NCBI GenBank assembly: GCA_016294165.1
Contig: JAEDCM010000004.1
Location: 5,914 to 69,913, forward strand
From: Anaeroplasmataceae bacterium
GTDB lineage: Bacteria; Bacillota_I; Bacilli_A; Acholeplasmatales; JAEDCM01
Length of the DNA stretch: 64,000 nt
Reading direction: 5' to 3'
Below, piece after piece: positions 1,944-61,720 of this stretch; positions within the stretch are counted from its first letter, which is position 1; every line of letters starts with the position of its first letter. Made by a program: the position numbers and the translations under genes. The notes beneath the pieces were generated by a model. The model made no database searches. It worked only from the letters and a program-made list of their open reading frames with translations, and was not told the DNA's origin.

Positions 1944-2968
1944 CTACAAATATACTTATTTAATAACTTGATTGTTTCTAAAATCGCATTAAGGTGTGTT
2001 CTTTCCATTCCATGTGATGCATGAACTCCAGGGCCGATAAGCGCTCCTTTAAAGCTTCCACCACCGCGAAGTGCCGCTGATACATCTGATGAATAGAATG
2101 GAAAAATATCAACTGCATAATCAATCTTATTTTCTTTAGCAATATTAATTAATTTAGTTGTTATATCATAATCATATGGACCAGAAGTATCCTTTGCCGC
2201 AATACTAACCTTATATTCACTACCTGCTAAATCCAAACCAATGCATCCCATATCAACCGTAATAAACTCATCAAATTCTTCATCTAGTGCACTTGCTCCA
2301 TGGCCAACCTCCTCATAAACCGTAAAGAAAAAGAAGGTATCATAATCAGGCTTTAAATTATTATCCTTAAAATATTTTAATAATGTTAAAAGAATACATA
2401 CTGATGCTTTATCATCAATAAATCTTGATTTAATAAATCCACTATCAGTTATTTCAAATTTTGGATCAATGCAAACTATATCACCATTATCAATTCCTAA
2501 TTTAAGAACATCATCCTTAGATTTAACAATTTCATCAATCCTAATTTCCATATTATCCTGATCACGACTTTTTGAACGGGCATCTGAAAAAACATGAACT
2601 GATGGAGATGTTGATAAGATGGTTCCACTATAGCATTTATTATCACGCGTATAAATTTTACAATATTCACCATCTAAGGTTGGAAACATAATTCCTCCAA
2701 TTGGAGTAACTGCTAGATTACCATTAGGTTTGATGCTTCTAACCATCAGTCCTAGAGTATCTAAATGGGCACTTGTCGCGTATTTTTTTTCGCTGCTCTT
2801 CCCTTTAACAAAAACCTTTAGTCCACCCTTTTTGATTTCACTTGACTCATATCCTAAATCATCTACTAGGGATTTTACTAACTTAACCGCCTTACTTGTA
2901 TATCCAGAGGGGCTATCACAATTAAAAACCTTTTCTGCAATTTCCTTATAATAATTCATATCTATCAT
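1940..2968 (-). CDS. M42 family metallopeptidase (glutamyl aminopeptidase / FrvX-like)
   Basis: 342 aa. Blocks SAHLDTLG, FFFTVYEEVGHGAS and GPGVHASHGMERTH look like M42 metal-ligand regions. 4-nt overlap with the next gene. Confidence 0.75.
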   Translation of the reverse strand: MIDMNYYKEIAEKVFNCDSPSGYTSKAVKLVKSLVDDLGYESSEIKKGGLKVFVKGKSSEKKYATSAHLDTLGLMVRSIKPNGNLAVTPIGGIMFPTLDGEYCKIYTRDNKCYSGTILSTSPSVHVFSDARSKSRDQDNMEIRIDEIVKSKDDVLKLGIDNGDIVCIDPKFEITDSGFIKSRFIDDKASVCILLTLLKYFKDNNLKPDYDTFFFFTVYEEVGHGASALDEEFDEFITVDMGCIGLDLAGSEYKVSIAAKDTSGPYDYDITTKLINIAKENKIDYAVDIFPFYSSDVSAALRGGGSFKGALIGPGVHASHGMERTHLNAILETIKLLNKYICR

Positions 2969-3108: not shown

Positions 3109-3184
3109 GCACCCTTAGCTCAGCTGGTAGAGCAACTGACTCTTAATCAGTGGGTCTACGGTTCGATCCCGTAAGGGTGTACCA
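3109..3184 (+). tRNA. tRNA-Lys (anticodon CUU), CCA encoded
   Basis: Cloverleaf read by eye: acceptor GCACCCT/AGGGTGT, D arm GCTC-AGCTGGTA-GAGC, anticodon arm ACTGA-CTCTTAA-TCAGT (anticodon CTT), variable loop GGGTC, T arm TACGG-TTCGATC-CCGTA, then ACCA. 76 nt. Confidence 0.9.
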
Positions 3185-25486: not shown

Positions 25487-25702
25487 AAAAAGTCCTTAGA
25501 AAAACTCTAAGGACGTTATTAACGCGGTACCACCTTAGTTCTAGAAATTAATTCTAGCCCTCAATCCTTTTAACGCAAGGCTACGAGATTCCATTTCTGG
25601 TCTAGCTCCATGGGAGTAATTAATAAGTCCGTTTACCTAACTTTCACCACCTTAGGCTCGCTAAAAAAGGTTAAATATTAATCATGTCCATTTCATCGCT
25701 AT
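25487..25702 (-). promoter_or_regulatory. T-box riboswitch leader of thrS
   Basis: Minus strand has stem I elements (AGCGAUGA..., AGCGAG, distal GGUGGUGAAAG), the T-box sequence AACUAAGGUGGUACCGCG (25523-25540), and the terminator GUCCUUAGAG-UUUUU-CUAAGGAC plus U-run (25487-25514). Candidate Thr specifier codons (ACG/ACU) lie in ...UAAACGGACUUAUU... I could not resolve which one is used. Confidence 0.85.
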
Positions 25703-25729
25703 TTATATAATATCACTTAGGAAAATAAA

Positions 25730-60159: not shown

Positions 60160-60678
60160 TTATTCCTCTAATTGCCCCTTAAATTCATCTAATAACTTTC
60201 TATTATCTAAAACTAATAAAATGATATAAGCAATAACACTTCCAACAACTGTTGATATTAAGAATGGAACTACATAAGCATAAAATGCAACATTTGATGC
60301 CTTTACACCCATAAATAATATCGCAATTGGATAAGCAGCTAGTCCACCTAAAATACCTGTACCAAGCATCTCCGCAACAGCTGTAAGTAGCTTATTTTTA
60401 AATAACATATAAACAATACCACTTAATAATGCTCCAATCATACTTCCAGGGAATGCTAATAGAGATCCTAGCCCAGCTAGATAACGAACAAGGCTAGTTA
60501 CAAAAGCCATTGATACTCCATAAACAGGTCCTAGTATAACAGCTGCAATTACATTAATCATATGTTGGATTGGTGCACATTTGCTTCCAAATACTGGAAA
60601 ATTCACAAGACTTCCAACAACTCCAATTGAACATAATACTGCCGCAATGCATAGCTTTTTAATATCTTTCTTTTTCAT
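60160..60678 (-). CDS. thiW: ECF transporter S component ThiW (thiazole precursor)
   Basis: 172 aa with 5-6 TM helices and the block GSKCAPIQHMINVIAAVILGPVYG, characteristic of ThiW. Confidence 0.8.
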   Translation of the reverse strand: MKKKDIKKLCIAAVLCSIGVVGSLVNFPVFGSKCAPIQHMINVIAAVILGPVYGVSMAFVTSLVRYLAGLGSLLAFPGSMIGALLSGIVYMLFKNKLLTAVAEMLGTGILGGLAAYPIAILFMGVKASNVAFYAYVVPFLISTVVGSVIAYIILLVLDNRKLLDEFKGQLEE

Positions 60679-60694
60679 TTTCTTCTCTCTTTCC

Positions 60695-60829
60695 TTTTTG
60701 CTAGTTGTATAAAGCTAGCAAAAAAATAATTTTTTTTGTTTTGTCGGTCGGTAGTTACGCTACCCTCTCACGCCACAACATGGCTTCCCTCGCTTTATAC
60801 ATACTAACTAAGGCGCTCCCCTTGCTAGC
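60695..60829 (-). other. structured leader with partial TPP-aptamer-like motifs (non-canonical)
   Basis: Minus strand: GCUAGCAA-GGGGAGCGCC-N37-GGCGUGAGA-G-GGUAG-CGUAA-CUACC-GACCGAC...UUGCUAGC...CUAGCAAAAA. See the findings section. Confidence 0.3.
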
Positions 60830-60934
60830 TATTAAATTTTATAAATAGATTTTTTGAACAAATTCCTATTCTTCGTTGGGCTACCAGTCTCTTACACGAT
60901 ATCTATAGGCCTAAATTCCGGTTGTTCAACCGTA

Positions 60935-61720
60935 TTATTTTCTATATGGTGCCATATGGTCAAGCGGACCTGAACCTTTCCCTAAATCTAGCATGCTTTT
61001 TAAGCAAGTACTTATATAGGATTTGGCATTTTTAATAGAATCTGGAATGCTATATCCTAATGCTAAATTTGAAGCAATCGCACTTGATAGGGTGCAGCCT
61101 GTACCGTGCGTATTAGGATTATCTATCCTTTCTCCATTAAACCATATAAATTCATCATTTGTTAATAGTAAATCATTACTATCATTAATTGAATGACCAC
61201 CTTTAATTAAAACCGAACCTTTAGTAATCTTTGAAATCACTTTTGCAGCTTCTTCCATATCCTCTTTAGTTTTAATTTTCATATTTGAAAGCACTTCTGC
61301 CTCTAATATATTTGGTGTAATAATTGTGGCTAAAGGAAATAATTTATTAACCAAAACATCAATTGCATTATCGTTTAATAAATGGGCTCCTGAGGTTGCC
61401 ACCATGACTGGATCTAAAACAATATTCTTGACATTATATTCTACTAATTTTTCACTAATCGTTTCAATAAGCTCTGTTTCACTAACCATCCCAATTTTTA
61501 CAGCATCTGGATAAATATCAGTAAATATTGAGTCCAACTCTTTAGCAAGAAATTCCTTTGAAACATTAAAAATTCCGGTAACACCAGTTGTATTTTGAGC
61601 AGTTAGAGCGGTTATTGCACTTGATGCATATAATTTGTGCGCTGTTATTGTTTTAATGTCAGCTTGAATACCAGCTCCTCCAGAACAATCTGATCCCGCA
61701 ATTGTTAAAACTGTTTTCAT
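60935..61720 (-). CDS. thiD: hydroxymethylpyrimidine/phosphomethylpyrimidine kinase
   Basis: LTIAGSDCSGGAGIQADIKT and GTGCTLSSAIA. ATG 61720 forms an ATGA overlap with the thiE stop. Confidence 0.9.
   Translation of the reverse strand: MKTVLTIAGSDCSGGAGIQADIKTITAHKLYASSAITALTAQNTTGVTGIFNVSKEFLAKELDSIFTDIYPDAVKIGMVSETELIETISEKLVEYNVKNIVLDPVMVATSGAHLLNDNAIDVLVNKLFPLATIITPNILEAEVLSNMKIKTKEDMEEAAKVISKITKGSVLIKGGHSINDSNDLLLTNDEFIWFNGERIDNPNTHGTGCTLSSAIASNLALGYSIPDSIKNAKSYISTCLKSMLDLGKGSGPLDHMAPYRK

Follow-up and report, generated by a model that had tools for sequence, protein, structure and literature searches.

The 256-nt gap between thiD and thiW in the DNA analysed here (a stretch of 64,000 nucleotides from an Anaeroplasmataceae bacterium, hereafter the window) harbors an intact member of a widespread family of cis-acting leader RNAs preceding thiW, the gene for a predicted thiazole transporter. 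Judging from the alignments, this thiW-leader family is evolutionarily tied to the aptamer of the thiamine pyrophosphate (TPP) riboswitch, and it is apparently uncatalogued and undescribed. We propose, with a probability of roughly 0.55, that the element is a riboswitch variant derived from the TPP aptamer, which would recognize a thiamine compound bearing the aminopyrimidine without needing the pyrophosphate, and which might serve as a second checkpoint behind the TPP riboswitch. In its broadest form the proposal, to which we would give about even odds, is that of a new riboswitch class, frequent in gut and rumen Clostridia, in which the aminopyrimidine pocket of the TPP aptamer would have been kept and its pyrophosphate arm replaced by a new hairpin, with a ligand other than TPP (possibly thiamine, thiamine monophosphate (TMP) or a derivative of hydroxymethylpyrimidine (HMP)) and with a two-input gate placed before the thiazole transporter gene.

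A conserved leader RNA family upstream of thiW

The related loci and contigs compared with the window (labelled with L-numbers such as L001, L022 and L135) came from two scans: a ThiW-based scan with one genome per species, which yielded at least 80 loci, and a scan of metagenome contigs (at least 120) by RNA signature alone, which avoids the bias of loci chosen through ThiW. From 63 non-redundant copies of the motif, the window being excluded, we obtained the alignment A2 and from it the covariance model R1 (model positions 1-98). R1 matches the window over the full model length with 65.9 bits (E=1.8e-13); this is its single match in the 64 kb, and it ends 63 nt before the thiW ATG, on the same strand (Table 1). 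The same model scores the motif at 62-111 bits just upstream of thiW in 46 of the 80 listed species genomes, and at 68-112 bits in the 100 metagenome loci searched with it.

In more than half of the 80 listed loci, the literal signature of the family, GGGGAGCGCC...GCGA(U)GGGAAGCCGUGUUCCGGCGUGAGAGG-hairpin-CGACCG, is found about 125-220 nt before thiW; in four it lies further upstream. In 111 of the 120 contigs listed from the signature scan of metagenomes, the next gene after the motif is thiW; of the other nine, six stop at the contig end before any gene and three are cut or unclear. Overall, the two scans gave at least 166 instances of the motif, in records whose titles name Oscillospiraceae, Lachnospiraceae, Faecalibacterium, Gemmiger, Terrisporobacter, Angelakisella, Allobaculum and others. 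The window element itself recurs with 100% identity in five other metagenome contigs that span the gap fully or nearly. A further contig (L205, positions 1-810) carries a ThiW protein and a motif identical to those of the window and runs, beyond about 12 nt 5' of the motif, into unrelated eukaryote-looking DNA; it was discarded as an example of a different upstream context, being probably a chimeric metagenome contig.

Rfam 15 contains no model for the thiW-leader motif. No description of it by gene, ligand, architecture or literal sequence was found in the searchable full-text literature, outside which subscription-only papers lie.

Structure of the conserved core

The motif is defined by the H1 loop GGAGCG, the AGCGA linker and the string GGGAAGCC-H2-UGAGAGG-H3-CGACCG, all of which are present in the window. 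Over the whole structure, 93% of the helix cells are paired in the 63 sequences of A2, against 31-50% in slid controls; cells in which both sides of a pair have changed number 163, versus 38 in shuffles, and none of 500 shuffles reaches the observed value. When the window core is folded in isolation, its minimum-energy structure (-24.3 kcal/mol) consists of exactly the three hairpins H1, H2 and H3.

Hairpin H1 has a stem of 9 bp with a one-base internal mismatch, in which seven of the nine pairs change on both sides and 95% of the cells are paired (63 sequences); the same helix is predicted by RNAalifold, and the ten bases at its top, GGGGAGCGCC, are invariant across A2. The family consensus of H2 is GCCG-UGUUC-CGGC, and the helix is preserved through changes on both sides in L001 and in the second copy of L135 (counted), as well as in L058 and in the window (seen in the printed rows). 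In H3, which comprises 5 bp, all cells are paired and four of the five pairs change on both sides. The loops of both H2 and H3 are conserved within the family. Between the hairpins, GGGAA is nearly invariant in A2, and UGAGA is invariant, together with its flanking bases, in 63 of 63 sequences. The conserved block stops at CGACCG, and the sequence 3' of it is variable in design.

The alignment of related thiW leaders and the analysis of their covariation have revealed a conserved family with three supported hairpins; the P3 stem and the closing helix that the original prediction, made from the window alone, had drawn did not survive the comparison. All the strings it quoted do occur at their positions on the minus strand (Table 1); what changes is their meaning. 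GGGGAGCGCC, formerly assigned to the P2/J2-3 strand of a TPP aptamer, is the top of the strongly covarying H1. The CGCC/GGCG pairing taken for P3 is broken in L001 and L058, as read by eye from the alignment rows and not counted by a tool; the true P3 equivalent is GCCA/UGGC at 60784-60772. GCGAGGGAAGCC, considered a remnant of the pyrophosphate-binding half, is instead the 5' strand of the pyrimidine arm, since R1 aligns it with GGGGAGCC of TPP aptamers. The 8-bp closing helix GCUAGCAA/UUGCUAGC found no counterpart in the relatives read by eye; it can be drawn only because GCUAGC is palindromic in the window. Finally, the degenerate piece at 60863-60894, regarded as a relic of the pyrophosphate arm, gave no Rfam signal and is left unsupported.

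Several other pairings were considered and abandoned. A P4-like pairing of CCCU with (U)GGG does not covary, and it is the 5' strand of H1 that does so instead; the pairing of a CGG preceding H1 with the invariant CCG was rejected, as the 5' bases are not conserved; and an outer P1, in which the 5' flank would join the strand that directly follows CGACCG, pairs no better within a sequence than between sequences, individual cases such as L004, with 10 bp, looking good. In most of the loci L001-L080 the 20-60 nt upstream of H1 contain a further small hairpin that covaries and adjoins H1 (H0, with CCACuuagGUGG and CCGCuucgGCGG as examples), together with a purine-rich box such as AAGGAUGUGA 5' of H0, where the window has AU-rich sequence only. 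The reading of this box as part of a leader peptide was dismissed, there being no suitable spacing and no conserved AUG.

The conservation of the core bears directly on one of the two alternatives originally put forward, namely that the gap holds a functionless, decayed TPP riboswitch left inside the operon after a fusion. The absence of a match to the TPP riboswitch model RF00059 and of the P4/P5 half (see below) is all that speaks for such a fossil. A match of 65.9 bits to an independently built family model, the retention of every invariant base, three hairpins that remain paired despite stems departing from the consensus, and the complete identity of the element in five other contigs covering the gap all speak against it. 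Because the window holds a full-length, high-scoring family member with all invariant positions and with differing yet paired stems, we reject this reading, which appears extremely improbable.

Relationship with the TPP aptamer

R1 also detects, at 15-32 bits, the canonical TPP aptamers of the same loci, and in doing so it aligns the TPP string GGGGAGC-P3-CUGAGAGG-P3a-CGACCC with (U)GGGAAGCC-H2-GUGAGAGG-H3-CGACCG of the motif. On the basis of this alignment, H2 is the equivalent of P3, H3 that of P3a, and UGAGA that of the J3-2 T-loop. The whole pyrimidine-sensor arm (P2, J2-3, P3, the UGAGA T-loop, P3a and P2') is present, with P2 reduced to two G-C pairs and a G-G mismatch. The earlier view that the pyrimidine half of a TPP aptamer is recognizable in the gap was correct, even though its detailed mapping was wrong. 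In crystal structures of TPP riboswitches, the T-loop of J3-2 sandwiches the aminopyrimidine ring.

The other half is missing. The P4/P5 pyrophosphate arm (CCUGAUC...GCGUAGGGA) is absent 3' of CGACCG both in the window and in its relatives, as had been anticipated, and its position is taken by a variable arm (a':b, described below) devoid of conserved bases. In TPP aptamers, CCUGAUC and the GCG of J4-5/J5-4 hold the pyrophosphate through Mg2+. RF00059 (gathering score 54.3 bits) has no match at 60600-61000 of the window at E<=10, which agrees with the expectation that no full-length canonical aptamer lies in the gap, and no other credible match from Rfam 15 was found there at the same threshold. 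The model likewise fails to recognize the motif in 10 loci at E<=1, in which the upstream canonical TPP aptamers score 49-73 bits, and in L022 (2780-3003) at E<=10. TPP was the sole Rfam family detected in these 10 motif-bearing loci at E<=1 and in 20 further thiW loci at gathering score.

The idea of a variant aptamer that no longer reads the pyrophosphate, which was the second of the alternatives originally offered, fits all of these findings: the arm is kept nearly letter for letter, P4/P5 is missing, and in most genomes the element stands second behind a complete TPP riboswitch. A related possibility is that of a structurally distinct TPP class, which would sense TPP itself through a different second arm and would provide a second checkpoint for the same ligand. 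Tandem TPP-TPP arrangements are common, with 213 representatives (PMC9481103). An origin by duplication of the neighboring TPP aptamer is plausible given the detectable similarity, and repression by the end product would suit every operon context. We nevertheless regard this possibility as rather improbable: the bases that hold the Mg2+-pyrophosphate (CCUGAUC and the GCG of J4-5/J5-4) are all gone, RF00059 remains without a match even at E<=10 in sequences of 224-401 nt, and the near-perfectly conserved 10-nt top of a new hairpin suggests a new recognition surface.

The 3' leader and its alternative pairings

The majority of leaders (82 of 102 unique ones, in which 60-160 nt separate CGACCG from the start codon) contain a contiguous 3' segment, here named b-c-b', with two sets of partners. 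In the first, nested and long-range set, the partner of c is the linker stretch immediately preceding GCGA, that of b is the strand right after CGACCG (a'), and that of b' is the 5' flank; in the second, local set, b and b' form a hairpin carrying c in its loop. Of the 76 unique 3' leaders in which CAGCG closes the linker, 61 contain its complement CGCUG, and in L040, L064, L198, L098 and the window the linker and c differ yet remain complementary. The resulting helix comprises 10-15 bp with energies of -14 to -20 kcal/mol, the window duplex (60801-60792 with 60715-60706) amounting to -14.2 kcal/mol. Complementarity extending beyond the CAGCG/CGCUG core is clear in a subset only, and it is not significant when CAG is excluded. 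This helix is topologically equivalent to P1 of the TPP aptamer and complementary across differing sequences; it is also long, absent from short leaders and incompatible with the terminal hairpin.

The remaining pairings were assessed by comparing duplex energies within one sequence with those between sequences. All three are stronger within sequences: a':b (p=1.6e-4), 5' flank:b' (p=8.9e-4), which includes matches of 9-12 bp and of quite different sequence in L005, L011, L014, L018 and L037, and, most clearly, the b:b' hairpin (p=1.8e-9). The window follows the same scheme. Its terminal hairpin UUUUUGCUAG/CUAGCAAAAA, proposed previously as an alternative structure, is confirmed and corresponds to the conserved, covarying terminal hairpin of the family; its loop and 5' strand hold the linker complement GCUUUAUACA (60715-60706). 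A fold containing the linker pairing and the A8/U7 arm reaches -39.8 kcal/mol, versus -34.6 kcal/mol for one containing the terminal hairpin, so close do the two states lie in energy. The notion of mutually exclusive helices holds insofar as the 3' leader has two exclusive pairings; the alternative to the terminal hairpin is the linker pairing and not the closing helix originally drawn.

A strong U-tract follows the b:b' hairpin in six leaders, among them L086, L094 and L098; as a general explanation, the reading of b:b' as a terminator was set aside, since it holds for a minority only. The role of b' as an anti-Shine-Dalgarno strand was not significant, and an outer helix between an anti-Shine-Dalgarno strand and the Shine-Dalgarno sequence in short leaders turned out to be an artefact of halving the upstream terminator. 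In the shorter leaders the ribosome-binding site lies 6-25 nt after CGACCG, and GCGA is invariant even in those short leaders that have no CGC partner downstream.

Genomic context and tandem arrangement

Roughly 200 nt before the motif, most loci possess a complete TPP riboswitch that has a terminator of its own, and the usual operon behind the motif is thiW-thiM-thiE-thiD-(thiC); in some loci it is thiW-thiM only, with thiE and thiD divergent. The order on the minus strand of the window is the canonical TPP riboswitch, thiM, a fusion of thiE with a phosphatase domain of the haloacid dehalogenase (HAD) type, thiD, the 256-nt gap, thiW and thiC (Table 1), so that the TPP riboswitch stands three genes and 3 kb upstream of the thiW leader. 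Both the length of the gap (thiD stop at 60935, thiW ATG at 60678) and the TPP aptamer leading the operon are as formerly reported. This riboswitch and the hairpin at 63828-63813 are the counterpart of the tandem partner seen in the relatives, and thiC is presumably co-transcribed with thiW.

Table 1. Positions of the thiW leader, its parts and the neighboring thiamine genes in the window
Feature	Positions	Strand	Basis or remark
Conserved thiW-leader core (H1, linker, TPP-like pyrimidine arm)	60834-60742	minus	R1 match; core folds to H1, H2, H3
H1 hairpin, stem CUAGC-AAGG/CCUU-a-GUUAG, loop GGAGCG (60819-60814)	60828-60804	minus	covariation, RNAalifold
Linker UAUGUAUAAAGCGA	60803-60790	minus	ends AGCGA; final GCGA invariant; 60801-60792 complementary to 60715-60706
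GGGAA, equivalent of TPP P2 5' strand and J2-3 (GGGGA/GGGGU in TPP)	60789-60785	minus	R1 alignment of TPP aptamers
H2, P3 equivalent, GCCA-UGUUG-UGGC	60784-60772	minus	both-side changes in relatives
UGAGA, equivalent of TPP J3-2 T-loop	60770-60766	minus	aligns with TPP UGAGA
H3, P3a equivalent, GGUAG-CGUAA-CUACC	60764-60750	minus	covariation
GACCG, equivalent of TPP GACCC (J and P2 3' strand)	60749-60745	minus	invariant; aligns to TPP CGACCC
A8-UUA-U7 arm, window counterpart of a':b in relatives	60737-60720	minus	in lowest-energy fold of the window
Terminal hairpin UUUUUGCUAG/CUAGCAAAAA	60724-60695	minus	terminator-like site scan; excludes linker pairing
Ribosome-binding region, purine-rich GGAAAGAGAGAAG, and thiW start codon (60678-60676)	60694-60676	minus	
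Previously quoted string GCUAGCAA	60829-60822	minus	
Previously quoted string GGGGAGCGCC	60821-60812	minus	
Previously quoted string GCGAGGGAAGCC	60793-60782	minus	
Previously quoted string UGAGA	60770-60766	minus	
Previously quoted strings GGUAG/CUACC	60764-60750	minus	
Previously quoted string UUGCUAGC	60721-60714	minus	
Previously quoted string CUAGCAAAAA	60704-60695	minus	
Canonical TPP riboswitch	63964-63864	minus	RF00059, 60.5 bits; heads thiM-thiE-thiD
Terminator-like hairpin behind the canonical TPP riboswitch	63828-63813	minus	terminator-like site scan
thiM	63784-62978	minus	
thiE fused to C-terminal HAD-type phosphatase domain, 423 aa	62988-61717	minus	
thiD	61735-60935	minus	open reading frame end 60935 includes stop codon
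thiW, S component of the energy-coupling factor type, predicted thiazole transporter	60678-60160	minus	TIGR02359, 159 bits
thiC, 37 nt after thiW	60122-58815	minus	NF009895, 666 bits

Among the loci seen, a single copy of the motif is associated with genes other than thiW. It is the second, divergent copy in L135 (11141-11020, minus strand, with a leader reaching to about 10688; 72.5 bits), on a contig that also holds a thiW copy. It stands behind a promoter-like TTGCCT-17-TACAAT and is followed by a clean intrinsic terminator (GGCAUGCUGCAGAAAGCAUGCC and a U-run); downstream lie genes for a PhnD-family substrate-binding protein (PF12974), an ATP-binding cassette (ABC) ATPase and a fused permease. 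The motif is optional for thiW, because in nine genomes (L007, L012, L019, L024, L029, L034, L049, L061 and L062) thiW stands behind a canonical TPP riboswitch alone, with no second element, and because L043, which shares the thiD-thiW-thiC order of the window, has a gap of merely 53 nt. In the Lachnospiraceae genome L078, the thiC-thiW intergenic region is filled by another RNA, the Clostridiales-1 RNA of Rfam (RF01699, 126.9 bits; 2686-2849, plus strand), a small RNA of unknown function that lies directly upstream of thiW. As regards the neighboring genes, the HAD part of the window thiE appears as a separate match beside thiE in several related loci (L008, L010, L027 and L043). The only other Rfam matches at gathering score in the window are a T-box leader (25506-25705, minus strand, 112.5 bits) and a tRNA (3109-3181, plus strand, 66.4 bits).

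Proposed function and alternative explanations

A remaining question concerns what the thiW leader responds to. The ligand might bear an aminopyrimidine, since the pyrimidine pocket is retained, and it might be recognized without pyrophosphate, since the Mg-pyrophosphate site is lost. Thiamine or TMP would be the compounds fitting the gene contexts best: if an end-product-like ligand of this kind led to repression, all the operon contexts, including the thiW-thiC arrangement of the window, would make sense. The closest statement in the literature is an unpublished note of the Breaker laboratory (PMC9481103, ref. 82), according to which thiamine or TMP is preferred by some RNAs that still count as TPP riboswitches.

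As to the mechanism, H1, the linker and the pyrimidine arm would together form the sensor. In a ligand-free state A, the b-c-b' segment might zip onto three separated upstream segments (a':b, linker:c and 5' flank:b'), while in a state B it would fold on itself as the local hairpin b:b'. Ligand binding would keep the AGCGA linker within the core and release c, allowing b:b' to form, and an abundant ligand would then repress thiW (and thiC in the window). This assignment of the sensor, and of the nested fold to the ligand-free state, was preferred because conservation stops at CGACCG, GCGA does not vary even in leaders that offer it no partner, and the linker:c helix is too long to need a ligand. 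The sign of the response is judged to be somewhat more probably repression than activation, because the order of a sensor, an anti-terminator-like pairing and a hairpin is usual for an OFF switch and because b:b' is a true terminator in some relatives.

A number of observations weigh against the riboswitch that we propose, or against parts of it. No outer helix joining the 5' flank to the strand that follows CGACCG could be demonstrated, and just 6-14 of 69 terminal hairpins are terminator-like. The modelled accessibility of the ribosome-binding site is the same in both states, with and without the 5' flank, and in the window this site is unpaired in both modelled states. The pocket may be altered, because the motif has an A where E. 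coli thiM has G19 and because the last C of CGACCC has become a G, which places an invariant G-G mismatch in the P2-like helix. The sign itself could reverse, because linker:c and a':b mimic the three-way junction of the TPP aptamer, in which linker:c might represent a P1 stabilized by the ligand. Lastly, one of the RNA's own bases, and not a ligand, could occupy the T-loop.

The last point leads to a quite different explanation, namely that the leader is structured without sensing any small molecule, a base of the H1 loop occupying the T-loop; its role might then concern a protein, RNA stability or processing, or the relay of the state of the upstream TPP platform to the ribosome-binding site of thiW. 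T-loops often take up an intercalating RNA base, the conservation of the H1 top and of the H2 and H3 loops is of the kind expected for RNA-RNA contacts, the modelled accessibility of the ribosome site does not change, and b' pairs with the 5' flank, a segment adjoining the TPP terminator. Against this explanation stands the presence of the motif outside the tandem context, both in the window, 3 kb from the TPP aptamer, and in L135, with its own promoter-like site and terminator. Moreover, the association is exclusive to uptake genes for thiamine precursors, and no RNA-binding thiamine regulator is known from these bacteria. On the whole, the absence of a small-molecule ligand seems quite improbable.

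The reversal of the sign is central to another possibility, according to which the element would be an ON switch for the pyrimidine precursor HMP pyrophosphate (HMP-PP), or for HMP monophosphate (HMP-P), and would thereby add a second structural class, with the same task, to the thiS motif, which is the known HMP-PP riboswitch. Low TPP combined with an accumulation of the pyrimidine half would turn on thiW and thereby thiazole import, linker:c acting as the ligand-stabilized P1. The genomic niche is the same as that of the HMP-PP riboswitch (PMC6478431; PMC6429828), about 30% of whose examples stand behind a complete TPP riboswitch and which precedes thiW in C. lundense; the tandem layout of TPP and HMP-PP riboswitches has already been described (PMC6478431, PMC9481103). 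Furthermore, the pyrimidine pocket is kept and another element takes the place of the pyrophosphate arm, the association of the motif is with thiW (in some loci with just thiW-thiM), and state A mimics the TPP three-way junction. Against such a switch stands the fact that most loci, including the members with a terminator, head thiW-thiM-thiE-thiD-thiC, and that the window heads thiW-thiC, which would impose a positive feedback on the enzymes making HMP-PP; in addition, linker:c, with its 10-15 bp and its -14 to -20 kcal/mol, has a stability that makes a ligand unnecessary, and GCGA is invariant in short leaders lacking the CGC partner. We consider this ON switch unlikely, if by no means negligible, and retain repression by a thiamine-like compound as the preferred reading.

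If this reading is correct, the TPP riboswitch would have, besides the thiS motif, a second companion, which shares no structure with that motif and is visibly derived from the TPP aptamer, and the family would represent a clear natural case of an aptamer re-engineered by the swap of one recognition arm. Many thiamine-salvage operons of gut Clostridia would be under two-signal control, and the leader would make the signal behind ThiW-dependent thiazole uptake directly accessible to experiment. The motif would also provide a new annotatable element for many genomes (at least 166 instances), in a region that is now blank in Rfam-based annotation.

Comparison with known systems

The closest known structure is the TPP riboswitch (RF00059). 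The two RNAs have in common GGG-purine-A-GC, the P3 hairpin, the UGAGA T-loop, GG, the P3a hairpin and CGACC; both are cis-leaders of thiamine genes, and one of the predicted folds of the motif has a three-way junction with the strand order of P1, P2/P3 and P4. Unlike the TPP riboswitch, the motif has no P4/P5 and no CCUGAUC...GCGUAGGGA, and RF00059 is blind to it; it has instead the extra 5' hairpin H1, with its invariant top, and the AGCGA linker. The G19 position is A, CGACCC is replaced by CGACCG, and the loops of P3 and P3a, variable in TPP aptamers, are conserved. The motif is, besides, normally additional to a TPP riboswitch and does not replace one.

The closest known role is that of the HMP-PP riboswitch (thiS motif; Atilho et al. 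2019, PMC6478431), which it resembles in role and not in structure: both can be the second element of a tandem whose first is a complete TPP riboswitch bearing a terminator of its own, both are tied to genes of thiazole supply, thiW included, and both presumably report a TPP-related compound other than TPP. The thiS motif, however, is a hairpin of about 50 nt whose aptamer is embedded in an intrinsic terminator and which acts as an ON switch (PMC6478431), whereas the thiW motif has a three-hairpin core of about 95 nt and a separate, variable 3' platform that is rarely a terminator. The terminator hairpin followed by a U-run that is typical of the thiS motif was not found in the window, where the terminal hairpin has no U-rich tail.

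Finally, the thiW leader can be compared with variant riboswitch classes and with two-input tandem gates (PMC9481103). As in the former, the parental scaffold is partly kept and one recognition element is replaced; as in the latter, its placement behind a second riboswitch would give a two-input logic. Published variants usually still match the model of their parent and differ in few bases of the pocket, whereas the thiW motif swaps a whole arm, and the parent model fails to recognize it.

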